A DNA stretch of 64,000 nucleotides from Omnitrophica bacterium GWA2_41_15 (GTDB lineage: Bacteria > Omnitrophota > Gorgyraeia > Gygaellales > Profunditerraquicolaceae), in NCBI GenBank assembly GCA_919901915.1, contig CAKKQB010000013.1, forward strand, positions 64,192-128,191, given 5' to 3'. The notes below the pieces were generated by a model. It was not told the DNA's origin. It saw nothing but the letters and a program-made list of their open reading frames with translations, and searched no databases. This document shows, piece after piece, positions 7,431 through 62,380 of this stretch. Position numbers and translations under genes: made by a program. Each line of letters begins with the position of its first letter. Within the stretch, counting starts at the first letter, position 1.

Positions 7431-7991
7431 TTATGGAACCTTTTTAAACAAATAAACAGAAATTTGCAAAACAGCTTCTAAACAAATTTGACCTTCCCCC
7501 GCGCCCTGAATCTTAAGCTCTCTTATCCTTACAAGAAACACGGGATTATTCCTTAAAATATCTAAATATCTATTTATGGCTATAAATTCACCTGCCAAAT
7601 TAAAAGTTATAGGCAACTCTTCTATATCATAACCCGAAACAGGAGTTTCTATTGGGCGCCTGCTCGAACTGCTAAGATTTTTAATTTCGATATTTAAATT
7701 CTTTGCTGTCTCGGATAGATTATTTATTACTATTTCTTCCTTATTAAGCAGTTGGCTTTCAATTTTATTCAGTTGCGCTCCCATACCATTTAATGCTTCC
7801 CCTACATCCTTGCCCTGAAGAATACCTTTTATTTCTAAAATCTGGCTATCAGCATCCTTCAATTGATTCTTTATCAAAGCAAACCTCCGTATCTGGGGAG
7901 AATAAACAAACTGCCAGAACAAAAACAAAAACACCGCCGCGGCTACAGCAAAATAAATAATTTTCCTCTGTTCTTTGTTTAACACTATCAT
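7431..7991 (-). CDS. pilO: type IV pilus assembly protein PilO-like
   Basis: 186 aa. One N-terminal TM segment, a coiled coil, a C-terminal alpha/beta domain. Positioned after the pilM-pilN fusion. Confidence 0.6.
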   Translation of the reverse strand: MIVLNKEQRKIIYFAVAAAVFLFLFWQFVYSPQIRRFALIKNQLKDADSQILEIKGILQGKDVGEALNGMGAQLNKIESQLLNKEEIVINNLSETAKNLNIEIKNLSSSSRRPIETPVSGYDIEELPITFNLAGEFIAINRYLDILRNNPVFLVRIRELKIQGAGEGQICLEAVLQISVYLFKKVP

Positions 7992-8207: not shown

Positions 8208-8255
8208 GATTTATCCGTGTTTATCCGTGTTCTTTTATCCGTGTCAATCCGTGTT
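8208..8255. repeat. B-type array: four TATCCGTGT motifs
   Basis: ggatttatccgtgtttatccgtgttcttttatccgtgtcaatccgtgtt lies directly 3' of the pilM-pilN stop. Same unit order as 14690-14736. Confidence 0.85.
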
Positions 8256-18922: not shown

Positions 18923-19029
18923 TAGCGTAGAGCGTAGAGCGGATAGTAAAATTAGCATTTAGCGTAGAGCGTAGAGCGTTTAATAAAAGTCTTTTGCCTT
19001 TTCTCTACGCTCTACGCTATACGCTATCC
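18923..19029. repeat. A-type heptamer-array hairpin (AGCGKAK)n ... (MTMCGCT)n
   Basis: tagcgtagagcgtagagcggatag...agcgtagagcgtagagcg-loop-ctctacgctctacgctatacgctatcc. The right arm contains the carA stop. Confidence 0.85.
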
Positions 19030-20107: not shown

Positions 20108-20137
20108 TAGCGTATAGCGGATAGCGTAGAGCGTATA
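20108..20137. repeat. A-type heptamer array, single arm
   Basis: tagcgtatagcggatagcgtagagcgtata; no complementary arm seen nearby. Confidence 0.75.
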
Positions 20138-29156: not shown

Positions 29157-29427
29157 GTAATAGTTCAGCTCTCGGAAGTACCCGTCGGTGTCATTGCGAG
29201 CCCGAAGGGCGAAGCAATCTCTTTAAAAAGATTGCTTCGTCGCTATCGCTCCTCGCAATGAGACTGCGTCATAATTCGGTTTTGGTGTCATTCCGGCGAA
29301 AGCCGGAATCCATTCTCCGGCAATAACACAACTCACTGGATTCCGGCTTTCGCCGGAATGACGAATTTTTAACGATTATGACACAGTCTGAATGACACAA
29401 GTACTTCCAAGAGCTGAACTATTACCT
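29155..29427. mobile_element. composite nested palindromic element with about 21-bp inverted ends TAGTTCAGCTCTYGGAAGTAC
   Basis: Ends at 29161-29181 and 29400-29420 with 1 mismatch. Inside are core III (29190-29262) and an inverted pair of core I hairpins (29287-29311, 29338-29362). Confidence 0.65.
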
Positions 29428-33322: not shown

Positions 33323-34750
33323 TTAGATAATCGGCAAATTATTTTCTTGCGTCAAATACTTATCCATAAAATCAGCGCAGCGCCTTCCTTCTGAAATGGC
33401 CCAAACAATTAAAGACTGACCGCGACGCATATCTCCACAAGAAAAAACGCCTCGCCGAGAAGTCAGAAAACTTTCTTTTAACAAGTTGTTTCTCTCTGGG
33501 GGCAAAAAACCCAAGGCTAAAATTACCAAATCCCCATCGAGTTCAAATTCGCTTCCGGAAATTTCTTCCATTACAGAATGGCCTGATTCATTCTTCTTGA
33601 ATTCAACCCGGCAGCAAGAAAGCTTTTTTACGTGTCCATTCTCACCAATAAACTTTTTTGTGGAAACCGACCAATCGCGAATTCCAGCTTCTTGGTGGCT
33701 GGTAGTAGCCTTAAGAAGCAGCGGATACTTTGGCCAGGGATAATCACGCGTGCGGGATTCAGCCGGCCGCGGCATAATTTCAATCTGGGTGACGCTCTTC
33801 GCGCCTTGCCTATGCGCGACGCCGATACAATCCGCGCCGGTATCCCCGCCGCCAATCACCACAACTTTTTTATCTTTAGCATCAATAAGTTCATCCGAAG
33901 AAAATTTTACGCCTTGCGCTCTTTTATTTGATTGAATCAAATAATCCATCGCGAAATATATGCCTTTTAATTCCCTTCCTTCTATCTTTTCAGCCGCAGG
34001 CTGATCCGCCTTCGGCGGAAGATCCCGAGGAATACGAGAACCGCAAGCTAAACAAATCGCGTCAAACTCTTTTCTTGAATAAGGCGCCTTTAAATCCATA
34101 CCCACATTTATGCCCGGCATAAATTTTATTCCTTCCTTTTTCAAAATTTCTAAGCGCCGATCCAAAATCCTTTTTTCTAATTTAAAATCCGGGATCCCAT
34201 AGCGAAGAATACCGCCAATTTTATCATCCCGCTCAAACACCACTACATTATGCCCCGCCTTGTTTAATTGATCCGCGCAAGATAAGCCCGCAGGGCCAGA
34301 ACCAATAATTGCCACTTTTTTTCCGGTGCGCCTCTTAGGCGGATTAGGCTTAATAAATCCATGTTTAAACGCGTACTCAATTATTGCCAACTCATTCTCT
34401 CTTGTAGTTACCGCCTCATCATTAATCTCTAAAACACAGGCATATTCGCAAAGAGCCGGACAAATTCTGCCGGTAATCTCCGGAAAATTATTAGTAGCCG
34501 AAAGCAGCAAATAAGCCTTTTCCCACTTGCCGCGAAATAACAAATCATTCCATTCCGGGATATAATTACTAATGGGACAGCCCCAAAGACAAAACGGCGT
34601 CCCACAATCCATGCAGCGCGAAGCCTGCTCCATAGAATGTTCGACTGCAGGTAATATGCCCACTTCGCGATAATCTTGGACGCGTTCACAAACAGGCCTG
34701 CATTTAGATACTTGCCTTTTAACTTTTAAGAAACCTTTAATATCACCCAT
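33323..34750 (-). CDS. gltD: glutamate synthase small subunit (NAD(P)H)
   Basis: 475 aa. Fe-S Cys motifs, GSGPAGL and GGGDTG dinucleotide folds. 8-nt overlap with gltB. Confidence 0.9.
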   Translation of the reverse strand: MGDIKGFLKVKRQVSKCRPVCERVQDYREVGILPAVEHSMEQASRCMDCGTPFCLWGCPISNYIPEWNDLLFRGKWEKAYLLLSATNNFPEITGRICPALCEYACVLEINDEAVTTRENELAIIEYAFKHGFIKPNPPKRRTGKKVAIIGSGPAGLSCADQLNKAGHNVVVFERDDKIGGILRYGIPDFKLEKRILDRRLEILKKEGIKFMPGINVGMDLKAPYSRKEFDAICLACGSRIPRDLPPKADQPAAEKIEGRELKGIYFAMDYLIQSNKRAQGVKFSSDELIDAKDKKVVVIGGGDTGADCIGVAHRQGAKSVTQIEIMPRPAESRTRDYPWPKYPLLLKATTSHQEAGIRDWSVSTKKFIGENGHVKKLSCCRVEFKKNESGHSVMEEISGSEFELDGDLVILALGFLPPERNNLLKESFLTSRRGVFSCGDMRRGQSLIVWAISEGRRCADFMDKYLTQENNLPII

Positions 34751-37700
34751 CTGATGCCTCCACCAACTCTATTTTCTCTTCTGTTTTTCTGCCTCCTAAT
34801 ACACGTTTATATTCAATGGGCATAACTTTTACAAATTTTTTTAATTCAGGAGTAAAATTATCTAAGATATTTTTCGCGCTGGAACTGCGCGTATAATGAT
34901 AGTGATTAGAAAGCAACTTCTCGATTGTTCGCGCGTCTTCTTCGGCCACGGCCTCAAGTATTACCATTTCCATATTGCACTTATTCTTAAAATCTCCGTC
35001 CTTATCCCAAACATAGGCGATACCGCCTGACATACCCGCGGCAAAATTTCTTCCGGTTCTGCCGATAACCACAACTCTGCCTCCGGTCATATATTCGCAA
35101 GCGTGATCTCCTACGCCCTCAACCACCGCGTAAAGGCCGGAATTCCTGATACAAAATCTCTCACCGGCAATCCCGCGGATATAGGCAGAGCCTAAAATTG
35201 CTCCGTAAAAAGTAGTATTGCCAATAATAATATTTTCTTCTACTTTGTAATTTGATTGCCTATCCGGATAGATGATAATTTTCCCTCCGGACATACCTTT
35301 ACCTACATAATCATTCGTCAGGCCTTCTAACTCAAGAGTAACTCCTTTGGCAAGCCAAGCGCCAAAACTTTGACCTGCCACACCCTTAAATTTAAAGTGT
35401 ATCGTATTCGCGGGTAAACCATCCTCCCCAAAAATACGACAAACTTCGCCGCTTAACATCGTGCCGACACTACGATTATGATTTCTAATGGATAGCTCTA
35501 TTTTAATTGGCTTCCTATTTTCCAAGGCGCCCCGAGCCAATTCGATAAGTTTTCTATCTAGAATATTGTCAATTCCGTAATCCTGTTTATAAGGAGCCAA
35601 ACCACTGCCCTCTGGCTTGCGGCTCGGGCTATGGGAAGCCCGACCATTGCCCTTTGGCTGATATAAAATCCGGGAAAAATCTATTTTCTTTGCTTTCCAG
35701 GGAAGAATCTTGCTATTTACTTCCAACAAATCAGCGCGGCCAATCAGATCATCTATTTTAACAATACCTAAACTACTCATAATCTGACGCAATTCCTGGG
35801 CAATGAAACGAAAATAATTTTCTACATATTCCGGCTTCCCGCTAAAGCGTTTCTCTAAAAGTTCATCCTGCGTAGCCACGCCAAGAGAACAGTTATTTAA
35901 GTGGCAATGTCTAAGCATAACACATCCCAAAACAACTAAGACTGAAGTACAAAATCCAAACTCCTCCGCGCCCAAAAGCGCGGCCACAGCCACATCCCTG
36001 CCGGTGCGCATTCCTCCGTCAACCTGAAGCCTCACCCTGCTTCTTAAATCATTTAAAACCAGGGTCTGATGTGTTTCGGCAATACCTAATTCCCAGGGAA
36101 GCCCGGCATGCTTAATGGAACTTAAGGGGGATGCCCCGGTGCCGCCATCTCCGCCGGAAATCAAAATCATATCCGCGTGCCCCTTAGCCACTCCCGTGGC
36201 AATAGTTCCTACTCCAATTTCAGAAACAAGTTTTACACTAACGCGCGCGCGCGGATTAACATTTTTTAAATCAAAAATTAGCTGGGCTAAATCTTCAATA
36301 GAATAAATATCATGATGCGGCGGCGGAGAAATCAAAGTTACGCCGGGAGTTGTATAACGAATCTTAGCGATAGCCGCGCTTACTTTGTGGCCGGGAAGCT
36401 GGCCGCCTTCCCCGGGCTTAGCGCCTTGCGCGATTTTAATCTGCAATTCATCAGCATTTACTAAGTAATTCGTAATAACGCCAAAACGCCCGGAAGCAAC
36501 CTGCTTTATAGCGCTGCGCTTAGAATCTCCGTTTGGGAACGCGACAAAACGCGCTGGATCCTCTCCTCCTTCGCCGGTATTAGACCTACCCCCCAATCTA
36601 TTCATCGCGATAGCTATTGTTTCATGGCAAGCCTTACTAATTGAGCCAAAACTCATCGCGCCGGTAACAAAACGCCGGACGATTTCGCTAACCGGCTCTA
36701 CTTCTTCAATGGGAATAGGCTTAACTTCTTTAAATTTAAAAAGGCTTCTTAAAGTAGCAGGATTACTTGATTGATCATTAATGAGTTTCGCAAACTCCTG
36801 GTATTTTTTAGAATCATTATTTCTTACCGCACCCTGCAAAGCGGCAATACTATCCGGATTCCAAAGATGAAATTCACCGTCTTTCTTCCACTGATACAGG
36901 CCGCCAGTTGCTAAAAATGGCCTTTGTAAACCATCGACCGCGAATGCCTCTTTGTGCCTTAGAAGCGCTTCCTTCTCAATAATTCCTAAATCAATACCTC
37001 CAATACGGGAAACTGTTCCGGTGAAATATTTATCAATTACCTCTGAACTTAGGCCCAATGCCTCGAATATCTGCGCGCCCCGATAACTTTGTAAAGTAGA
37101 AATTCCCATTCTTGAGAGTATCTTTAGAATGCCTTTATCCACTGCCTTAATATAATGCTTTATCGCGGACTCTAAATCTAAGTCAACTTCCTTATCTCTA
37201 ATTAAAAAGGCGGCCGCTTCATAGGCAAGATACGGATTAATACAATCCGCGCCATACCCAAACAAGAGCGCGAAATGATGCACCTCGCGCGGAGAAGCGC
37301 TTTGAACAATAATACTTACCTGGGTACGCAGCGCCTTTCTTACCAAATCCTGATGCACACAAGCCGTTGCCAATAACGCGCTAAGGCAGGCCTTATCTTT
37401 ATTTATACCCTGATCACTTAAAATAACAAAAGTAAAACCCTCTTTTATCGCGGCTTCTGTTTCTTTGCAAATCCTGTCTAATGCTTTTTTAAAATTGTTT
37501 TTTTCTGAAATATTAAACAGAAGAGAAATTGTTTTTGTTTTAAAACCGTTCTTTTTTATATCGTGAATCTTTTTCAGATCTTCATTTGTCAAAATAGGAT
37601 TTTTTACTAATAACTTATGGCAATGCCGCGGCTGCTCATCCAAAATATTTTTTTGCGGCCCTAAATACGTATCAAGGCTCATCACCAGCTCTTCCCTGAT

Positions 37701-39386
37701 TGGGTCAATTGCCGGATTAGTAACCTGCGCGAATAACTGTTTAAAATAACTATAAAGCAACTGCGGCTTATCAGATAAAACCGCATGCGGGGTATCATTA
37801 CCCATTGAGCCATTCGGTTCATGAGAATCTTCCACCATAGGTTTAATGATAAATTTAAAATCCTCGCGGGTGTAACCGAAAGCTTTGAATAGAGTTAACG
37901 GATCTACTTTATTAGCGGATAGCGGATAGCTTTTATTAGCGTAGAGCGTAGAGCGTAAAGCGTAGAGCGTTTTGCTTTTCCTATCCGCTATACGCTCTAC
38001 GCTATCCGCTGATAATTTATCCAACTCTAACATATTTTTTTTAAGCCATTCTCCATACGGCTTAGAGCTTGCCATTGTTTCTTTTATTTCCTTATCTTCA
38101 ATTATGCGGCCTTCTTCTGTATCAACAAAAAGCATCTTTCCCGGTTCAAGCCTTCCTGAGATAGAAATATCATCCGGCGCGATATCTAAAACCCCTGCCT
38201 CTGAAGCCATAACTACCAAATTCTTTTTGGTCACAATATAGCGGCTAGGCCTTAAACCATTTCTGTCTAAAACCGCGCCAATCCTTACGCCATCAGTAAA
38301 GGCAATGGCTGCCGGTCCATCCCAGGACTCAATAAGACAAGTGTGGTATTTATAAAAATCTCTTACATTTTGACTCAAAAGATTATTCTGCTCCCAAGCG
38401 CTGGGTATTAACATCATCATCGCGTGAGACAAAGATCTACCCGATAAAACTAAAAGTTCAAAAACATTATCAATAGCCGCGGAATCGCTTCCCCCGGGAA
38501 CAATCACCGGAAAAATTTCCTTTAAATCCTTACCAAATAATTTACTTTTTAGTAAACCTTGGCGGGCAGTCATCCAATTTATATTCCCTTTTAAGGTATT
38601 TATCTCTCCATTATGCGCCAAGAACCGAAAAGGCTGCGCCAGATCCCAAGTGGGAAAAGTATTGGTACTATAACGGGAATGCACTAAACAAATCGCGCTT
38701 TGAAGAGCGCTGTCTTTTAAATCCAAAAAGAATTTCTCCAACTGCTCAGGCATAAGCAGGCCTTTATAAGAAAGCGTGCGGCAAGAAAGATTAGTAATAT
38801 AAAAAAATGATTTTTGTTTTAAGAATAAAGAGCGGATTTCGTTTTCTATTTTCTTGCGGATAATATAAAGCCTGCGCTCAAAATCAAGGCCATCCTTACC
38901 TATACTTAGACCTTTACCTTTACCTATAAAAACCTGCTCAATCACCGGTTGAGTAAGCTTTGCGGTTTTGCCAATCGCGGAATTATCAACCGGGACAATC
39001 CGCCAACCAAGCAAGGCCTGGCCCTCTTCTTTAATAATTCTAGCAAAGATACCCTTACATAACGCGCGCTCTTTTTTGTTAGTGGGAAGAAATACCATGC
39101 CTATCCCATAATCGCCAGAGGACGGTAAAATAAAATTTTCCTTCGCGCAGGCTTTTGCCAAAAATTCATGTGGCGCCTGAATAAGTATGCCTGCGCCATC
39201 CCCGGTCTCTGGGTCGGCGCCAGTTGCCCCGCGATGAGAAAGACGGCCTAAAACCTCCATGCCCTGTTTAATAATTTCATAAGATTTTTTGCCTTTGACA
39301 TCGCAAACAAATCCTACGCCGCAGGAATCATGTTCAAAACGGGAATCATACAACCCGTATTTTTCTAATTTCTGACGATTATCCAT
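34743..39386 (-). CDS. gltB: glutamate synthase large subunit
   Basis: 1547 aa. Ntn Cys (DSCGVGF), central domain, FMN domain and GXGXG domain. Contains two repeat-derived inserts. Confidence 0.95.
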   Translation of the reverse strand: MDNRQKLEKYGLYDSRFEHDSCGVGFVCDVKGKKSYEIIKQGMEVLGRLSHRGATGADPETGDGAGILIQAPHEFLAKACAKENFILPSSGDYGIGMVFLPTNKKERALCKGIFARIIKEEGQALLGWRIVPVDNSAIGKTAKLTQPVIEQVFIGKGKGLSIGKDGLDFERRLYIIRKKIENEIRSLFLKQKSFFYITNLSCRTLSYKGLLMPEQLEKFFLDLKDSALQSAICLVHSRYSTNTFPTWDLAQPFRFLAHNGEINTLKGNINWMTARQGLLKSKLFGKDLKEIFPVIVPGGSDSAAIDNVFELLVLSGRSLSHAMMMLIPSAWEQNNLLSQNVRDFYKYHTCLIESWDGPAAIAFTDGVRIGAVLDRNGLRPSRYIVTKKNLVVMASEAGVLDIAPDDISISGRLEPGKMLFVDTEEGRIIEDKEIKETMASSKPYGEWLKKNMLELDKLSADSVERIADRKSKTLYALRSTLYANKSYPLSANKVDPLTLFKAFGYTREDFKFIIKPMVEDSHEPNGSMGNDTPHAVLSDKPQLLYSYFKQLFAQVTNPAIDPIREELVMSLDTYLGPQKNILDEQPRHCHKLLVKNPILTNEDLKKIHDIKKNGFKTKTISLLFNISEKNNFKKALDRICKETEAAIKEGFTFVILSDQGINKDKACLSALLATACVHQDLVRKALRTQVSIIVQSASPREVHHFALLFGYGADCINPYLAYEAAAFLIRDKEVDLDLESAIKHYIKAVDKGILKILSRMGISTLQSYRGAQIFEALGLSSEVIDKYFTGTVSRIGGIDLGIIEKEALLRHKEAFAVDGLQRPFLATGGLYQWKKDGEFHLWNPDSIAALQGAVRNNDSKKYQEFAKLINDQSSNPATLRSLFKFKEVKPIPIEEVEPVSEIVRRFVTGAMSFGSISKACHETIAIAMNRLGGRSNTGEGGEDPARFVAFPNGDSKRSAIKQVASGRFGVITNYLVNADELQIKIAQGAKPGEGGQLPGHKVSAAIAKIRYTTPGVTLISPPPHHDIYSIEDLAQLIFDLKNVNPRARVSVKLVSEIGVGTIATGVAKGHADMILISGGDGGTGASPLSSIKHAGLPWELGIAETHQTLVLNDLRSRVRLQVDGGMRTGRDVAVAALLGAEEFGFCTSVLVVLGCVMLRHCHLNNCSLGVATQDELLEKRFSGKPEYVENYFRFIAQELRQIMSSLGIVKIDDLIGRADLLEVNSKILPWKAKKIDFSRILYQPKGNGRASHSPSRKPEGSGLAPYKQDYGIDNILDRKLIELARGALENRKPIKIELSIRNHNRSVGTMLSGEVCRIFGEDGLPANTIHFKFKGVAGQSFGAWLAKGVTLELEGLTNDYVGKGMSGGKIIIYPDRQSNYKVEENIIIGNTTFYGAILGSAYIRGIAGERFCIRNSGLYAVVEGVGDHACEYMTGGRVVVIGRTGRNFAAGMSGGIAYVWDKDGDFKNKCNMEMVILEAVAEEDARTIEKLLSNHYHYTRSSSAKNILDNFTPELKKFVKVMPIEYKRVLGGRKTEEKIELVEASDG
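35597..35658. repeat. E-type palindromic element inside gltB (in frame, linker between FMN and C-terminal domains)
   Basis: ccaaaccactgccctctggcttgcggctcgggctatgggaagcccgaccattgccctttggc encodes QPKGNGRASHSPSRKPEGSGL. Confidence 0.7.
37911..38010. repeat. A-type heptamer-array hairpin inside gltB (in frame)
   Basis: attagcggatagcggatagc...tagcgtagagcgtagagcgtaaagcgtagagcg-loop-ctatccgctatacgctctacgctatccgct encodes SADSVERIADRKSKTLYALRSTLYANKSYPLSAN. Confidence 0.85.
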
Positions 39387-39389
39387 ATT

Positions 39390-39558
39390 TTTAGCGTATA
39401 GCGTATAGCGTAGAGCGTAGAGCGTATAGCGTATAGCGTAGAACGTAGAGCGTAGAGCGGATAGCGGATAGTAAAAATCTATGTTTTAACTATATGTTAT
39501 CCGCTATTCCTACACGCTTTCTTTCCTATCCGCTAAACGCTATACGCTCTACGCTAAT
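39390..39558. repeat. A-type heptamer-array hairpin, largest copy (left arm about 11 units)
   Basis: tagcgtatagcgtatagcgtagagcgtagagcgtatagcgtatagcgtagaacgtagagcgtagagcggatagcggatag, then a loop, then a degenerate complementary arm. Confidence 0.85.
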
Positions 39559-44635: not shown

Positions 44636-44659
44636 CCTCTTATTTTTAATGTTTTAGTA

Positions 44660-44732
44660 TTTAGCGGATAGCGTATAGCGTATATATAGGTTTTACTATC
44701 CGCTATACGCTCTACGCTATACGCTATACGCT
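44660..44732. repeat. A-type heptamer-array hairpin
   Basis: tttagcggatagcgtatagcgtata-loop-tatccgctatacgctctacgctatacgctatacgct. The right arm contains the nfnA stop. Confidence 0.85.
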
Positions 44733-45569
44733 TGATATTTTAAGATTACAGATATGCTTTTCTTTATCTAAATAAACACTGTTCCTCTTTGTCAATTCAT
44801 CCCAATTTACTTGAGTTCCGTCAAATTCCGGGCCATCAACGCAAGCAAATTTCGTCTTACCTGCCACAGTTACACGGCAACAGCCGCACATTCCAGTAGC
44901 ATCTACCATCAAAGGATTCAAAGAAACAATGGTTTTAACTTTAAAATCGCTAGCAACCTCGCAAACTCTTCTCATCATCGGTATCGGGCCGACTGCGTAA
45001 ATTAGCGAATAGCGGATAGCGGATAGTGAATAGCTTAATACCTCCTGCAAAATATCAGTAACAAAGCCTTTCCTGCCGCAAGAACCGTCATCAGTGGTTA
45101 TATAAAGCTCATCGCAAAACACCTTTAGCTCCTGCTCCAAAATCAATAAATCATTGTTTCTTGCGCCCAGTATAGTAGTAGTATGGTTTCCCGCTTCTTT
45201 CAAAGCCTTGGCAACCGGATAAATCTCCGCAATTCCTACGCCTCCGCCTACAAGAATTAAATTTCCAAAATTTTTAATCTCAGTAGCATGCCCCAGGGGC
45301 CCGGCCAAAGCGTATAATGAATCACCAACCTCCATCTTGCCCAGCAACTTAGTAGTTAAGCCAACCTCTTGAAAGATCAAGGTAATTGTGCCTATGTCAG
45401 AATTTTTATCTACTATAGTTAGAGGTATCCTTTCGCCTTCCTCGCATACCATAAGAACAACAAATTGGCCCGGTCTTACTTTCCTGGCAATAAGCGGGCT
45501 TAAGATTTCAAAGCGCTTAATTGTTACGTCTTGCGTTTGTGCTAAAATTTCTTTTTTGATTATCCGCAT
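44724..45569 (-). CDS. nfnA: NfnA/SudB-like FAD/NAD-binding ferredoxin-reductase-type subunit (PyrK family)
   Basis: 281 aa. Has RPGQFV, GGGVGIA and a C-terminal 2Fe-2S Cys cluster (GMCGCCRV...CVDGPEF). Confidence 0.75.
   Translation of the reverse strand: MRIIKKEILAQTQDVTIKRFEILSPLIARKVRPGQFVVLMVCEEGERIPLTIVDKNSDIGTITLIFQEVGLTTKLLGKMEVGDSLYALAGPLGHATEIKNFGNLILVGGGVGIAEIYPVAKALKEAGNHTTTILGARNNDLLILEQELKVFCDELYITTDDGSCGRKGFVTDILQEVLSYSLSAIRYSLIYAVGPIPMMRRVCEVASDFKVKTIVSLNPLMVDATGMCGCCRVTVAGKTKFACVDGPEFDGTQVNWDELTKRNSVYLDKEKHICNLKISSV
45001..45035. repeat. A-type heptamer array (single arm) inside nfnA, in frame
   Basis: agcgaatagcggatagcggatagtgaatagc encodes SYSLSAIRYSLIY. Confidence 0.7.
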
Positions 45570-47649: not shown

Positions 47650-47716
47650 AGCGTTTAGCGGATAGCGTTTAGCGTATAGTTTTTTTTATCCGCTATACGC
47701 TCTACGCTATACGCTA
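47650..47716. repeat. A-type heptamer-array hairpin
   Basis: cagcgtttagcggatagcgtttagcgtatag-ttttttt-tatccgctatacgctctacgctatacgcta. Confidence 0.85.
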
Positions 47717-48202
47717 TTAATACGATATAGCTATCCTCTTATTCTCTTCCCTGTGCTTCAAAATCACTCCATCTTCCTTATATTTTTTTAATAAAAAGTG
47801 CGTGACTATGCCGCGGATATTCTCGAGGCAAGAAAGTTTCTCCGCTACAAATTGTGAAACTTTTTGTAAATTCTTGCCCTCAACTATAACCAAAAGGTCA
47901 TACGTGCCGGAAATCAAGCAACAGTCAGTTACCTCCGGAAACGAATAAATACGCTCAGCAATTTTATCAAAACCAATATCCTTTTGCGGAGCAATATTAA
48001 CCTCTATCAAAGCCCTGACGGAAGGCTCTTCGGTTTTAATTAAATCCTTATTTATTACTGTTTTATATTTTAAAATTATCCCCTCTTTTTCATACTTTTT
48101 TATCGCCTCTTTTATTGCCTCCGGCTTTTTCTTTAACATTTTCGCGATCTCTTCCGGAGTTACAAGCGCGTTCTTTTCTAATATCTCTAATATTTCGTCC
48201 AT
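47717..48202 (-). CDS. Lrp/AsnC family transcriptional regulator
   Basis: 161 aa. An HTH, then a RAM/AsnC_trans_reg domain. Confidence 0.85.
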   Translation of the reverse strand: MDEILEILEKNALVTPEEIAKMLKKKPEAIKEAIKKYEKEGIILKYKTVINKDLIKTEEPSVRALIEVNIAPQKDIGFDKIAERIYSFPEVTDCCLISGTYDLLVIVEGKNLQKVSQFVAEKLSCLENIRGIVTHFLLKKYKEDGVILKHREENKRIAISY

Positions 48203-48225: not shown

Positions 48226-48287
48226 GGAGAGAACAGATTACAGAGTACGGATTACTGAAAGATTTTTCTGTGCTCTGTTCTCTGTGC
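48226..48287. repeat. C-type heptamer hairpin (CAGAGMA units), overlapping the nadE 3' end
   Basis: ggagagaacagattacagagtac...ctgtgctctgttctctgtgc. Related to 61007-61095. Confidence 0.7.
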
Positions 48288-49008
48288 TTTCTTTAATATA
48301 GCATATTTTCGGCCCTTCCCTCTTATGCTCTGATTTCTTTACCATATTTTTTACTTTATTTACTTTCTCTTTTGATAAGACCTGTTTCTTCTTGTTTTCC
48401 AAACGCTCCAATATGTCATCTAACTCGTTATAGGTAAGCCCCATTTCTCCTTCATCGGTCTGGCCTGGCCAGAGTCCGGCAGTAGGCGGCTTAGTAACAA
48501 TGGATTCGGGAATCTTTAATTCTTTAGCCAATGCCCTTACCTGTTTTTTTAATAAACCGCCGATTGGCAAAATATCCGTTGCCCCGTCGCCATACTTGGT
48601 AAAATAACCGACTTCAATTTCAGATCTATTTCCTGTGCCGCAGACAAGATAATTAAGTTTATTGGCAAAATAATATAAAACTAACATCCTTAAGCGCGGT
48701 TTTAAATTTGCCAAAGCTAACGGCCCCGCTTTGGGTAAAATTTTCATGACATTGTCGTAAATATCAGCCAAATCAATTAATTTTATTTTTATCCCAAATT
48801 TCCTTGCCACTAACTTTGCGTCATCTAAATCCTGTTTTTGACTATGACAGCCAAGAAACAAAACCAAAAGTTTTTGTTTACCCAGCGCTTCCCTGGCTAA
48901 AACAGCTACCACCGCGGAATCTATCCCCCCGCTTAAACCCATAACAATACCCTTTGCCTTAGCCGCTTTGACCTGCTGCCTAATCCAAGAAATAATTTTC
49001 TTTTTCAT
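48238..49008 (-). CDS. nadE: NH3-dependent NAD+ synthetase
   Basis: 256 aa with the SGGIDS PP-loop. The last about 16 aa (STENRAQKNLSVIRTL) are repeat-derived. Confidence 0.9.
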   Translation of the reverse strand: MKKKIISWIRQQVKAAKAKGIVMGLSGGIDSAVVAVLAREALGKQKLLVLFLGCHSQKQDLDDAKLVARKFGIKIKLIDLADIYDNVMKILPKAGPLALANLKPRLRMLVLYYFANKLNYLVCGTGNRSEIEVGYFTKYGDGATDILPIGGLLKKQVRALAKELKIPESIVTKPPTAGLWPGQTDEGEMGLTYNELDDILERLENKKKQVLSKEKVNKVKNMVKKSEHKREGPKICYIKESTENRAQKNLSVIRTL

Positions 49009-53642: not shown

Positions 53643-53700
53643 ATTAGCGCGGATAGCGTTTAATTTTTTCTATACGCTATACGCTCTACGCTATACGCTA
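53643..53700. repeat. A-type heptamer-array hairpin
   Basis: ttagcgcggatagcgttta-atttttt-ctatacgctatacgctctacgctatacgcta. Confidence 0.85.
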
Positions 53701-56068: not shown

Positions 56069-56160
56069 TTTTTTTCTCCCTATCGTATTACATTTGACAC
56101 TATCATATTACACGTATTGTCAAAAGTATTTAGTTAATTCTTTTATATCTGCTGGCTCTT

Positions 56161-56218
56161 GTCATTCCGGCGAAAGCCGGAATCCAGTCTTCTGGACCCC
56201 GGCTTTCGCCGGGGTGAC
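56161..56218. repeat. core I hairpin + GACCCCGGCTTTCGCCGGGGTGAC hairpin in the nrdJ leader
   Basis: Same module pair as 6123-6215. Confidence 0.8.
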
Positions 56219-56238
56219 ATCTTAAATTTTCTATAATA

Positions 56239-59775: not shown

Positions 59776-61116
59776 TTAATGAAATTTTTTCTTGGCTTTT
59801 TTTGAGATACACAAGGCGGGATTTTTCCAAAACTCTTTGAGCGTATAATAAGCTTTGCGGGGAGAGCGTTTATTCAACCTTTGTCCTGCCGGGTCTTTAC
59901 TGCCTAATAAGGCATCCTCAGGCTCTTGCGACAATGCCACAATACCAAACCACTCTTCATTCATATTTTTATTGCCTTCTACCTTTATATCAAAATAATA
60001 GTTTCCGTTAGACCAATTCGAACCAGTATCATGCTCGAGCCACGTATCAGAGGCATGCTCATCATACTTCCACCATTCATCTGACCACTCAAAAATAACG
60101 CCGCCTAAACAATTGCCCGCGCCTTTCTTATTACCCGCCAGATTCCCATAAATCTGACACCATTGAGATTCCAGGAAAAATGCCTGCATATCCTGATCTT
60201 CCTTTTTTAAATAGGCATCATAACAATCAGCACCAATTTCTACCAAAAGAATTGGCTTGTCAAAAGTTAATTTTAAAGATTTAAAAAGGTTTCCAAAGGT
60301 CTTACCTCTATAGATAATGCAAGCAATCAAATCTACGTCAGGACAATATTCCTTCGCGTATTCCAACCCTGTCAACTCGCCATTCCCCAATGCCACAGGA
60401 TGTTGAGGGTCGAGTTCATGGACAGCTTTCGTCAAATCATTTACATAAGAATAATAAATCCTGGAACGTATGGCTCCTTGTTTCTGGGGATCTGGTTCTT
60501 TTTCTGCTTCTTCGCAGGCCCAAGGATTAACACGGCCTAAACAAGAATAGTTATTTTCATTGCCCATAATCCACATAAGCAATCCGGGCTCGTCCTTATA
60601 TAAGCTGACCATATCCAGGACATCTTTCTTTATTCTTTCCTGAAAACCCTTATCTCCATAGAATGGGCCGGGATACTCCCAAAAAGATAACCAATGGCCT
60701 AAAATTGTGCGTATTCCGTAAAGCTGATAAAGCTCGCTAATTACTTTTTTTACCGCTTCTGGATTATCTCCCGGCTGATAAATTCTTATGGTATTAACCC
60801 CCATCTCATGCATCAGTTTTCCGTCTACAATCCAAGGTTTATTGGGGTCAGACCACCAGTCATATTCGTGATTCTTACCAATAGGAACAGGATTATAACA
60901 AACCCCTTTTACGATGTAAGGTTTTTTATCTACTATCAACTGGTAGTAATTATTTTTAAGTTTTTTAATATAAACTCCGGGCTTTGGCTTTGAGGCCATA
61001 CCCATTAAAAACAGAACACAGAGCACAGAAAACAGAGAACAGAATATTTTTCTCTGTGCTCTGCGCTCTGTTCTCTGTGCTCTATTTTCCGTTCTCTTAT
61101 TCATACTTAATTTCAT
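59776..61116 (-). CDS. clan GH-A (beta/alpha)8 glycoside hydrolase (GH2/GH72-like motifs), paralogue 1
   Basis: 446 aa. Has VKGVCYNP, GVNTIRIY, WIMGNENNY (acid/base) and LLVEIG (nucleophile region). The N-terminal 40 aa are encoded by repeat 61007-61095. Confidence 0.7.
   Translation of the reverse strand: MKLSMNKRTENRAQRTERRAQRKIFCSLFSVLCVLFLMGMASKPKPGVYIKKLKNNYYQLIVDKKPYIVKGVCYNPVPIGKNHEYDWWSDPNKPWIVDGKLMHEMGVNTIRIYQPGDNPEAVKKVISELYQLYGIRTILGHWLSFWEYPGPFYGDKGFQERIKKDVLDMVSLYKDEPGLLMWIMGNENNYSCLGRVNPWACEEAEKEPDPQKQGAIRSRIYYSYVNDLTKAVHELDPQHPVALGNGELTGLEYAKEYCPDVDLIACIIYRGKTFGNLFKSLKLTFDKPILLVEIGADCYDAYLKKEDQDMQAFFLESQWCQIYGNLAGNKKGAGNCLGGVIFEWSDEWWKYDEHASDTWLEHDTGSNWSNGNYYFDIKVEGNKNMNEEWFGIVALSQEPEDALLGSKDPAGQRLNKRSPRKAYYTLKEFWKNPALCISKKAKKKFH
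61007..61095. repeat. C-type heptamer-array hairpin (CAGAGMA)n / (TKCTCTG)n inside the 5' end of the hydrolase ORF
   Basis: acagaacacagagcacagaaaacagagaacagaa-tattttt-ctctgtgctctgcgctctgttctctgtgctc. Confidence 0.8.
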
Positions 61117-62290
61117 CTAAATAAAATGTTACTCCTTGCGGATTATTGTCAAGATTAGCCGCCCAGCAGAAACCACCGATAATATAGGACATATCCTTGC
61201 CCTTTAAATCAATAGAATACTGTGTCCATTCTTTGTTCAGGATAACCGGGCCAATATTAGCTGAATCAGAATCAGAATATTCCCCCATTATTCCGCCAAC
61301 CTTAAATTCCTCGATACGCTCTCCTCCATTTTCTCCGTGCGCCCAAAAGGATAATTTAACAGCCTTGGACAGATCATAACCCGCGTCTATTGTTCCCCAG
61401 TTATTAGCCGGCTCCTGCCAAAACATCCCCGCCCAACGACTGCCTTGAGAAGCCTTATTACCATAAATAATTTTAATACAAGTATCTCCTAAATAAGGGT
61501 TCTCCTTCGACGTTCCATTAAATTTCAAATCACTGTAATCACCCATCCAACCCGAAGAAATAAAGTGGTTTATGGAAGACCTATCAGCATAAACATAGAA
61601 AGGCATCTCCTTTTGTTTTTTGCCTTCCGGTTTCATAGCTGAATCAACCTCAAACTTTATATCGTCAATAAAAAATTTGGCTCCTTCGAGATTCAAATCA
61701 GCGGTAGTAATCCACGAGAAACCACCGCTTACACAAGATAAGTCTTTCCCCGCAAGATTAATTGTATATTGCTTCCATACATCAGTAAGTTCGATCGGCC
61801 CCATTTGCGCGTCTACTGAATCTGGATATGTATTTTTTGGCTCAATACCAATTCCGCCGACCTTTACCTTCTCTATCACTTCCCCGCCTTTAGCGCCTCT
61901 TGCCCAAAAAGTTAACTTAGTCATCCCGGTTAAATCATACCCGCCTTTTTTGCTTCCCCAATTATTAGCCGGATTCTGCCAATAAACACCTACCCATTCC
62001 TTGCCTTGCGATCTCTTGGCGGTATATTCAAATTCAATGCAAGTACTTCCTGAATGAGGGTCTTCCGTAGACTGATCATTCATCTTAACATCGCCATAAT
62101 CACCCATCCATCCGGAAGGGGCATAATGATTTTCACGGCTATTTCTATCCGCGTAAACCACGAATTCCTTAGTGCCCGCGACACTCTCAACAACTTGAGT
62201 TGTTTCTCCGGTTTCCCCTGCTTCCTGCGCCATTACGCAAAAAGGCAACGCCAAAATCGCTGCTACTAACACCACTAACAACTTCTTCAT
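61097..62290 (-). CDS. secreted protein with two tandem carbohydrate-binding-module-like domains
   Basis: 397 aa with a signal peptide. Internal duplication: YADRNSRENHYAPSGWMGDYGDVKMN...YWQNPANNWG versus YADRSSINHFISSGWMGDYSDLKFN...FWQEPANNWG. Confidence 0.65.
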   Translation of the reverse strand: MKKLLVVLVAAILALPFCVMAQEAGETGETTQVVESVAGTKEFVVYADRNSRENHYAPSGWMGDYGDVKMNDQSTEDPHSGSTCIEFEYTAKRSQGKEWVGVYWQNPANNWGSKKGGYDLTGMTKLTFWARGAKGGEVIEKVKVGGIGIEPKNTYPDSVDAQMGPIELTDVWKQYTINLAGKDLSCVSGGFSWITTADLNLEGAKFFIDDIKFEVDSAMKPEGKKQKEMPFYVYADRSSINHFISSGWMGDYSDLKFNGTSKENPYLGDTCIKIIYGNKASQGSRWAGMFWQEPANNWGTIDAGYDLSKAVKLSFWAHGENGGERIEEFKVGGIMGEYSDSDSANIGPVILNKEWTQYSIDLKGKDMSYIIGGFCWAANLDNNPQGVTFYLDEIKYE

Positions 62291-62307
62291 TTTACCCCTC
62301 CCATTTT

Positions 62308-62379
62308 TCGTATTACGTGATGCGTGACGCGTATCGCGTTAAAATTTTCGCAATACGCACAACGCACGACGCAATACGA
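62308..62379. repeat. D-type heptamer hairpin (CGTNNNN units)
   Basis: tcgtatta cgtgatg cgtgacg cgtatcg cg-ttaaaatttt-cg caatacg cacaacg cacgacg caatacga. The arms are only partly complementary. Confidence 0.65.
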
Positions 62380-62380
62380 A

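Follow-up and report, generated by a model that had tools for sequence, protein, structure and literature searches.

An intercistronic stem-loop of Omnitrophota that probably also encodes the export signal of a GH158-like glycoside hydrolase

Stem-loops of the repetitive extragenic palindromic (REP) and bacterial interspersed mosaic element (BIME) type reportedly lie between cistrons of enterobacteria, for instance at malE-malF and hisJ-hisQ, and heptanucleotide repeats known as short tandemly repeated repetitive (STRR) sequences are said to occur in cyanobacteria. Sense and antisense readings of the genetic code are reportedly complementary in hydropathy, an idea attributed to Blalock and Smith. 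Repeats can also be translated: the opa genes of Neisseria carry CTCTT coding repeats in the leader-peptide region and undergo phase variation by slippage (PMC3960869), and Rickettsia palindromic elements (RPEs), like in-frame miniature inverted-repeat transposable elements, are palindromic repeats translated inside open reading frames (ORFs) at permissive positions (PMC10969869). Here we describe a heptamer hairpin at 61007-61096 of a 64,000-nt window (the whole stretch of DNA that was analysed) of Omnitrophica bacterium GWA2_41_15, contig CAKKQB010000013.1 64,192-128,191; coordinates below are window positions. The hairpin lies between the gene of a protein with tandem carbohydrate-binding modules (CBMs) and that of a GH158-like glycoside hydrolase (GH), and the frame of the hydrolase is open across it. 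No description of Omnitrophota heptamer hairpins or of hairpin-encoded signal peptides was found in the open-access literature.

We consider it likely that this intercistronic mRNA stem-loop is also translated, as the export signal of the hydrolase, with reinitiation at an ATG that overlaps the upstream gene and with a role of the hairpin as RNA.

The hairpin and the reading frame of the hydrolase

The local operon has the order GH paralogue, tandem-CBM protein gene, hairpin 61007-61096 and GH158-like hydrolase (Table 1). From 61096 to 61007 (- strand) the sequence forms a single stem-loop of 36 pairs, made of CAGAGMA/TKCTCTG heptamers (C-type), which starts on the first base after the stop codon TAA (61097-61099) of the tandem-CBM gene. 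The minimum free energy (MFE) was −56.5 kcal/mol in a 141-nt context, compared with −28.8 ± 3.6 kcal/mol for dinucleotide shuffles (z −7.8), of which 0/200 reached as low an energy. Each arm is an array of five tandem 7-nt units (period 7 in Tandem Repeats Finder), of CAGAGMA in the 5' arm and of its complement in the 3' arm, and the 3' arm ends in a run of 5 U. The pattern CAGAGMACAGAG, with at most 1 mismatch, had 11 matches in the window against 0.17 expected; these sit at 61012-61084, at 48266-48284 and, as one weak match, at 7966. Three other assemblies (ENA ERZ1292638, Logan ERR3858135 and Logan ERR3858133) carry the 151-nt region without any difference, so the hairpin is not an assembly artefact.

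ORF 59776..61116 (- strand) is open across the hairpin, with the translation MKLSMNKRTENRAQRTERRAQRKIFCSLFSVLCVLFLMGMA↓SKPKPG. The proposed start codon lies 17 nt before the upstream TAA, and the overlapped codons are GAT GAA ATT AAG TAT GAA TAA, i.e. DEIKYE and the stop. A TAG stands immediately 5' of the ATG in the same frame, so the ORF cannot start further upstream. A first-pass annotation of this DNA had placed a C-type hairpin in the N-terminal coding part of the ORF, and both the hairpin and its translation were found as described; it had also derived the first 40 codons entirely from the two arms, which holds for codons 8-37 only, codons 1-7 (MKLSMNK) being overlap with the upstream gene and codons 38-41 (MGMA) lying just 3' of the hairpin. 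Two Met codons within the c-region, at 61003-61005 and 60997-60999, represent the rival start. A Shine-Dalgarno (SD) motif is absent 5' of these internal Mets; the neighbouring tandem-CBM gene has the SD GGGAGGGG.

To compare orthologues, GTDB species representatives were scanned, which yielded 80 orthologous loci with 61-73% identity to the hydrolase; 79 loci with an identifiable upstream stop, the window added, are the basis of the architecture counts. The same upstream gene, ending in FYLDEIK[YF]E and the stop, precedes the hydrolase in 78/80 loci. In 60 of the 79 loci, window included, no stop interrupts the hydrolase frame as far back as the overlapping start region (architecture A). The other 19 (architecture B) have a classic MKK-type signal peptide of their own, with a hydrophobic core, after an untranslated spacer. 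The ATG lies 17 nt before the upstream stop in 57/60 A loci; two have ACG at this position and a TTG one codon upstream, and in one the upstream gene has an extra codon, the overlapping ATG being displaced upstream by one codon. The spacer from the upstream stop to the mature domain measures 100-184 nt and is 1 mod 3 in 60/60 A loci, compared with a distribution of 7/7/5 over the frames in B loci. Each of the two alternative frames is without stops in just 4/60 A loci; the GH frame is without them by definition. About 2 of the 79 loci would be in frame and open by chance (79 × 1/3 × 0.07); 60 were observed. In 22 loci with a hairpin of family 1 (see below), the ATG-to-hairpin distances were 40, 43, 46, 52, 58, 112, 115 and 124 nt; each of these is 1 mod 3, and the only deviating value came from a mis-anchored match shifted by one heptamer. 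A mod-3 constraint upstream of the family-1 hairpin cannot be explained by a start in the loop or in the 3' arm. On a neighbour-joining tree of the mature domain, architecture changes at least 15 times and hairpin family at least 22 times, so the observations on the loci are not a few inherited states. The spacer lengths, the stop-codon counts, the distances upstream of the hairpin and the changes on the tree thus argue that the A-type extension is translated. The comparison with orthologues had been proposed in the first-pass annotation and favours the repeat-encoded start, since in 60/79 loci the only usable start overlaps the end of the upstream gene. In about three quarters of the related Omnitrophota species, the window genome included, the hydrolase is predicted to have no start codon of its own after the hairpin, and its long, hairpin-encoded N-terminus is almost certainly translated.

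Avoidance of the Ile codon ATA in the overlap (0/60 versus 8/19) is real, is partly circular from the definition of the architectures and is taken as supporting only. The conserved N-terminus M[KR][LS]SxNK was rejected as evidence for the long start, as it is the +1-frame reading of the conserved upstream DEIK[YF]E and stop. Two loci (L034, 4001-4180, and L062, 2350-2540) have two tandem hairpins, family 2 followed by family 1, between the ATG and the mature hydrolase; both hairpins are in frame and the presequences comprise 65-68 residues.

Probable export signal, arm polarity and folding of the junction hairpin

Every orthologue has a hydrophobic segment directly before the conserved (K/R)P-x-PKVYIKKLKN. 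A lipobox (LSAC, LSGC and similar) ends this segment in 18/79 loci; in other orthologues it finishes in LGMA↓S or LGA↓S, and several orthologues lack a Met at this place (...LLGASS..., ...ILGAAPK...). A lipobox Cys at the position of the internal Met makes sense only after a signal peptide. The window sequence LFLMGMA↓SKPKPGVYIK aligns with MKKYPQILAVLFIFLAMGMA↓SKPLPKVFIK of orthologue L010, which has a classic signal peptide of its own (MKKYPQILAVLFIFLAMGMAS, ...LAMGMA↓SKPLPKVFIK). The parts of a Sec-type signal peptide were found in order: a basic n-region (residues 1-23, net charge +7; architecture A median 25 aa and +5), the h-region IFCSLFSVLCVLFLMGMA with a best 12-residue Kyte-Doolittle mean of 2.78 (median of orthologues with classic signals, 2.92), and small neutral residues at −3/−1 (G-M-A↓S, by rule), which align with the LGMA↓S, LGA↓S and lipobox positions of the orthologues. 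The earlier assignment of a basic n-region to one arm, and of an h-region with an A-x-A-like site to the complementary arm, agrees with these values. The lipoprotein lipobox for signal peptidase II, [LVI][ASTVI][GAS]C, was not found in the window protein, in which Cys stands in IFC and VLC contexts, nor was the twin-arginine translocation (Tat) motif S/T-R-R-x-F-L-K, the window having ERRAQRKIF. A Tat signal was also considered for the GRR/GRK-x-F-L-L motif and rejected, the first Arg of family 1 varying (GRR, GRK, GYR, GCR) with the RNA pairing. In an AlphaFold2 (AF2) model, a single long helix spans hydrolase residues 6-40, ahead of a globular fold that begins at about residue 48. We infer that the hairpin-encoded N-terminus is a Sec-type signal peptide or signal anchor, and that the hydrolase would be exported like its orthologues.

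Codons whose middle base is A stand for polar or charged residues and pair with codons whose middle base is U, which stand for hydrophobic ones. Since complementary codons thus encode opposite hydropathy, a translated hairpin resembles a signal peptide. The peptide of the 5' arm is the more hydrophilic one in 56/57 translated A hairpins, with a mean hydropathy of −1.24 versus +1.91. In the untranslated B hairpins, read in three frames, the hydropathies of the arms are anticorrelated (r = −0.51) and show no preferred order (21/51). A-U pairs with the A on the 5' arm likewise outnumber the reverse by 480 versus 178 in A loci, compared with 136 versus 129 in B loci. In-frame hairpins may either have been accepted only at the right polarity or have been shaped to it.

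In 87% of 71 loci the first 130 nt past the upstream stop had an MFE of at most −40 kcal/mol, compared with 6.8% after 365 other ORF stops and 7.1% inside ORFs (control). Fold z-scores were below −3 for 93% of the A and 79% of the B loci; the strong fold in both architectures indicates that the hairpin is kept whether translated or not. A perfect Watson-Crick stem of at least 12 bp detected hairpins at 25/79 junctions only, since the stems hold G·U pairs, and MFE-based measures and a G·U versus A·C test were therefore used; a helix of at least 14 pairs with bulges was too lenient as a control statistic (~30% everywhere), and the MFE threshold of −40 discriminated. Internal G·U pairs numbered 125 versus 9 A·C mismatches.

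The sequence of the junction hairpin is not conserved and is of three kinds. Family 1 is a junction-specific two-heptamer stem (GCTRCAGGYYRCAGGC / GCYTGYRRCCTGYAGC) with 0 other sites in ~620 kb; family 2 is a dispersed nested palindrome (GGGACGGTTCT...AGAACCGTCCC); the third kind comprises various heptamer arrays, the window having the CAGAGMA type and locus L039 the TAGCGTA type that also occurs in the window. In the family-1 alignment (20 species), pairing is kept in 95% of cells and compensatory changes are seen at 8/19 pairs; the observed pairing or covariation score was matched by 0/500 shuffles, 4/500 reached 8 compensatory pairs, and two columns are fixed G·U pairs. In the peptide, the compensatory changes are Tyr/Val versus Arg/Ala swaps, which would not be expected from any constraint on the peptide. 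Folding is better for the sense than for the antisense strand in 51/60 A loci (p = 3e-9); this bias can in part stem from the G+U-rich composition of the sense strand, but it still indicates that selection acts on the transcript and not on DNA. The junction hairpin looks RNA-selected; on this evidence it is a position-conserved intercistronic stem-loop across Omnitrophota, which would double as signal-peptide coding sequence in most species. A search of Rfam gave no match in the window except one tRNA, and none in 6 orthologous loci.

Proposed mechanism and alternative explanations

In the mechanism that we propose, a ribosome ending the tandem-CBM gene would reinitiate at the overlapping ATG, probably by termination-reinitiation coupling, and would read through the hairpin to yield a hydrolase with a long-n-region Sec signal peptide, which would then be exported. 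The A/G-rich 5' arm would supply the basic n-region, 23 aa long with a net charge of +7, the hydrophobic core IFCSLFSVLCVLFL would come from the U/C-rich 3' arm, and the conserved c-region MGMA↓SKPKPG just past the hairpin would complete the signal peptide or anchor. A hairpin appears to be selected at the junction independently of its sequence and would most likely set the ratio of binding protein to enzyme, via protection of the 3' end of the upstream cistron or via attenuation or processing of the read-through transcript; long perfect stems could be RNase III substrates. In the window genome its own expandable heptamer repeats would fill this role, and the same repeats would have extended NadE by 18 aa and entered GltB in frame. 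Export signal and junction hairpin both appear to be ancestral in the family, the heptamer type that fills both roles being specific to the window genome. The proposal in the first-pass annotation that a repeat was exapted as an export signal is accordingly only partly apt: the orthologues support a repeat-encoded signal, and signal and hairpin as such seem older than the repeat that now encodes them. More tentatively, the element could be a dual-coded one, in which a structurally selected stem-loop has the n- and h-regions as its arms, acts as a translation-coupled attenuator and offers a route to signal-peptide birth. Enzyme may then be made only from transcripts on which the reinitiating ribosome melts the hairpin, the others ending or being cut in the stem and giving binding protein only; RNA pairing and peptide hydropathy would co-evolve, the Tyr/Val and Arg/Ala swaps being an example of compensatory base-pair changes.

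Several observations weigh against the mechanism that we prefer. The sole SD-like motif (AAGGAG) is 15 nt from the proposed ATG, and a 36-bp stem beginning 21 nt past the start codon should impede translation. The C-type arms, one without T and the other without A, are intrinsically stop-free, so openness in this single genome proves nothing alone. Architecture A is defined by openness, which is partly circular; circularity does not touch the mod-3 statistics or the way in which these loci and those with a start of their own complement each other. The closest orthologue shares no more than 74% identity, and the case for the window genome is therefore made by family-level homology. An n-region of this length and high charge is unusual, the h-region has three Cys and no lipobox, and the signal peptide was called by simple rules and homology. 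The RNA function, too, is one that we infer; U-tracts (at least 6 T in the next 10 nt) follow 58% of the translated hairpins, where they are partly Phe/Leu codons, and 17% of the untranslated ones.

The other reading offered by the first-pass annotation was a purely intergenic hairpin followed by a cytoplasmic hydrolase that starts at an internal Met (MGMASKPKPG... or MASKPKPG...), the long ORF being an artefact of a stop-free repeat. It would agree with the inability of the C-type arms to hold stops on the - strand (one is almost without T, the other without A), with the untranslated intercistronic nature of most other heptamer hairpins of the window, with the conserved MKLSxNK being a mere shadow of the upstream C-terminus, and with database entries of the hydrolase family, which carry both kinds of start, some orthologues being annotated from MAS.... 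However, the orthologues do not generally start at this position, several have no Met there and 18/79 have a lipobox; the frame and stop statistics over 60 species, also upstream of the hairpin, speak for translation; and the internal Mets are without an SD though the genome uses strong SDs elsewhere. Because it would leave the window genome alone in the family without the export signal that every orthologue has, including the 19 loci with classic short signals and the 18 with a lipobox, we regard the internal-Met, cytoplasmic reading as very unlikely. A selfish or neutral repeat, like an RPE, could also have settled in a permissive spot and persist through its compatibility with a signal peptide, with no function as RNA. 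The in-frame or read-through copies at other permissive sites (GltB linker, NadE tail), the dispersal of the family-2 junction palindrome elsewhere in other species and the rapid turnover of hairpin sequences are what such a repeat would give. It would leave unexplained why a strong fold is present at the junction in 87% of species versus 7% of other gene ends, why family 1 is confined to the junction, why there are compensatory changes and fixed G·U pairs, why the stability bias is specific to the sense strand and why the hairpin is retained in the 19 loci where it is untranslated, and we consider it unlikely.

With five tandem 7-nt units per arm inside a leader-peptide coding region, 7 not being a multiple of 3, the array could be a contingency locus, in which slipped-strand gain or loss of one unit shifts the frame and switches the exported enzyme off or on, for which Neisseria opa is the precedent (PMC3960869). 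This seems highly improbable in view of a repeat number that is identical in 4 assemblies from at least 3 samples. The protein cluster at 90% identity consists of a single member sequence, with no internal-Met or frameshifted variant, and 0/79 species are in an 'off' frame without a start of their own; moreover, most orthologous hairpins are not long arrays, and slippage would leave the inverted-repeat arrangement unexplained. A possible but rather doubtful alternative is that the hairpin is mainly a Rho-independent terminator of the binding-protein gene, with hydrolase made from read-through that is helped by a reinitiating ribosome blocking the fold. The window stem is followed by UUUUU, the frequency of U-tracts after translated hairpins exceeds the background of 34%, and family 1 is textbook-like, with a stem of 17-20 bp, a U5 loop and a U-rich tail. 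In the MFE structure of the window, however, U5 pairs with an upstream A-run, and a consensus terminator scan, which is blind to long stems and loops, did not call the window hairpin (14-nt loop, stem >20 bp); U-tracts are also rare at untranslated hairpins of the same junction, and T-richness after the stem is expected anyway from Phe/Leu codons.

Other features of the window and comparison with known systems

Every large ORF of the window is on the - strand. Pfam gave nothing above threshold for the hydrolase or the tandem-CBM protein (for the hydrolase, sub-threshold GH2_C and GH72 matches only), and their folds were therefore identified via AF2 and Foldseek. The best Foldseek matches of the hydrolase were the GH158 endo-β-1,3-glucanases 9p26 and 6pal (E 1e-14 to 1e-12, TM-score ~0.5, 19% identity); the enzyme appears GH158-like by fold and is a candidate member of GH158 from this comparison of structures. 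The tandem-CBM protein has the classic signal peptide MKKLLVVLVAAILALPFCVMAQE and the C-terminus FYLDEIKYE, and its model matched tandem CBM22, CBM11, CBM30 and SGBP-B. The stop of the hydrolase is followed by a plain GC-rich hairpin and then by a ROK regulator. Homology of the hydrolase to the paralogue starts at residue 58. The comparison with this paralogue, also proposed earlier, was uninformative on the start: the ORF runs off the window, and its orthologues have ~270-330 further N-terminal residues (full product 777 aa in L081), so the TTG at 63961 in the mechanical ORF list is not the real start. The hairpin between paralogue and tandem-CBM gene begins on the base after the paralogue stop and is followed by the SD GGGAGGGG and then by the start codon (ATG) of the tandem-CBM gene; one untranslated (62307-62380) and one translated (61007-61096) heptamer hairpin hence occur in the same operon.

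Table 1. Positions of the junction hairpin, its neighbours and related heptamer hairpins in the window.
Feature	Position	Strand	Remarks
Paralogous GH2_C-like ORF	62381-64000	-	open to window edge
Second intercistronic heptamer hairpin	62307-62380	-	YGTGCGT/ACGCAYC type; −41.1 kcal/mol, z −4.3; untranslated
Upstream gene	61097..62290	-	secreted protein, two tandem CBM-like β-sandwiches, 397 aa
Proposed hydrolase start, ATG	61114..61116	-	embedded in GAT GAA of the upstream gene
Junction heptamer hairpin	61007-61096	-	CAGAGMA type
5' arm, GAGAACGGAAAATAGAGCACAGAGAACAGAGCGCAGAG	61059..61096	-	read as RTENRAQRTERR..., basic n-region; mean Kyte-Doolittle −3.0
Loop, 14 nt, CACAGAGAAAAATA	61045..61058	-	read as ..AQRK(I), n/h boundary
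3' arm, TTCTGTTCTCTGTTTTCTGTGCTCTGTGTTCTGTTTTT	61007..61044	-	read as FCSLFSVLCVLFL, hydrophobic h-region; mean hydropathy +2.6
c-region, (L)MGMA	60994..61006	-	rule-based cleavage GMA↓SKPKPG predicted between 60994 and 60993
Mature hydrolase	59776..60993	-	GH158-like clan GH-A TIM-barrel glycoside hydrolase, predicted by AF2 and Foldseek
Decayed C-type heptamer hairpin, nadE 3' end	48227..48283	-	nadE stop 48238-48240 inside 3' arm
NadE C-terminal extension, KESTENRAQKNLSVIRTL	48241..48294	-	18 codons past the canonical end ...GPKICYI
GltB T-type TAGCGTA/TACGCTA hairpin	37938-38010	-	in frame, ORF 34743..39386, linker from GATase_2 to central domain
TAGCGTA-type heptamer hairpins	18924-19026, 39392-39556, 44655-44732, 47650-47717, 53670-53700	-	gaps of co-directional genes, e.g. 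carA-carB

Three types of heptamer hairpin occur at at least 8 junctions in the 64 kb, nearly all of them intercistronic and directly after a stop codon. Those of the TAGCGTA type typically start at or right after the stop and end a few bases before the next start; a heptamer hairpin is also present in the gap before an Lrp-like gene, and the sequence ...TACGCTAAAAATATGGA recurs at two starts beside TAGCGTA-type hairpins. The claim that the repeat of the hydrolase gene also overlaps the 3' end of nadE was borne out, a decayed copy supplying the stop and an 18-aa tail beyond the end of the orthologues: of the 120 closest NadE orthologues, 76 have exactly 238 aa and end in GPKICY[IVL] and the stop, NadE of the window has 256 aa, and the Pfam NAD_synthase profile is complete at its residue 233. 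The GltB hairpin is read as ...LSADSVERIADRKSKTLYALRSTLYANKSYPLSANK... in a stretch of 38 residues, compared with 12 in B. subtilis GltA (7mfm_G). The NadE tail and the GltB insertion look like tolerated by-products of the spread of the repeats.

Further repeats were noted. Half elements at 20108-20137 and 45003-45034 (- strand) are one-armed arrays of TAYMCGC (the 3'-arm unit) without an inverted partner; the latter is part of ORF 44724..45569, whose frame reads it as ...YSLSAIRYSLIY.... At the CBM-GH junction of L039 (SBBM01000015.1) a TAGCGTA-type hairpin is translated in frame (...RLAFSVERLGNNL...YTLYAIRYTL...), which places the same heptamer family in distant Omnitrophota genomes. The family-2 palindrome is common to several Omnitrophota, with dispersed copies in L013 (~5322 and 6810) and L054 (~7005), and the C-terminal extension ...GTVLKVKQNCPYLGDTSRLS of NadE orthologue P0161 looks family-2-derived. 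The palindrome GTCATTCCGGCGAAAGCCGGAATCCA, unrelated to the heptamer families, has two copies in the window (29287-29362 and 56160-56219), one with a perfect 26-bp inverted repeat. A perfect 464-bp tandem duplication of 1.9 copies (14714-15598) contains a prepilin-type (N_methyl) gene. The decamer TTTATCCGTG recurs at 8210, 13986-14046, 14692 and 15178, across the locus of type IV pilus, type II secretion system F (T2SS-F) and PilM genes; an origin of replication (oriC) was rejected as the identity of these decamers, which lie in the type IV pilus locus.

If the hydrolase is exported like the tandem-CBM protein, the two would form a module for glycan capture and cleavage that is extracellular or periplasmic and not cytoplasmic. 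For annotation, comparative frames would be needed in these genomes, the longest ORF and the first Met after a repeat both being unreliable guides on their own. The junction would be a natural case of one sequence constrained both as RNA secondary structure and as signal peptide, the two demands being reconciled by the antisense hydropathy rule. The signal peptide, the C-terminal tail of NadE and the linker of GltB suggest a route by which intergenic palindromic repeats enter genes; if this is true, signal peptides could readily arise de novo from palindromic repeats that are translated. The junction is also a system in which translation-coupled control of cistron ratios could be tested, in an uncultivated phylum.

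Each of the systems named at the outset shares part of this arrangement. As in REP/BIME sequences, a stable stem-loop stands directly after a binding-protein gene, many palindrome copies are dispersed in co-directional intercistronic gaps, and the presumed role would be differential expression via 3'-end protection. Unlike in REP, which is untranslated, the next gene here starts upstream of the hairpin at 61007-61096 and its frame reads through it; the units are heptamers and the taxon is another. With STRR sequences the family shares tandem 7-nt units and a dispersed, mostly intergenic distribution; the sequences and the phylum differ, and STRR are not described as inverted arrays after stop codons, nor as coding. 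The opa repeats are similar in that they, too, are pyrimidine-rich short tandem repeats whose unit length is no multiple of 3, and in that they lie towards the 5' end of the coding sequence and encode the hydrophobic part of an export signal. They form a direct array with no inverted copy and no hairpin, whereas here the array is one arm of a conserved stem-loop whose complementary arm encodes the n-region, and its length does not vary across 4 assemblies. RPEs compare well with the three cases of the window (GH signal peptide, GltB linker and NadE tail); they are, however, dispersed elements of ~100-150 bp with a conserved peptide in internal surface regions, not tied to one junction and not known to supply a signal peptide, whereas here heptamer arrays are found and the hairpin is phylum-conserved at its junction while its sequence changes. 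The complementarity proposed by Blalock and Smith would explain the opposite hydropathy of the two arms; it was framed for opposite strands, and here both versions are on one mRNA, are read consecutively and have a selected polarity. Overall, the junction is best classed as a new combination of known elements: REP-like hairpins, in-frame palindromic repeats, repeat-encoded leader peptides and the coupling of overlapping genes.

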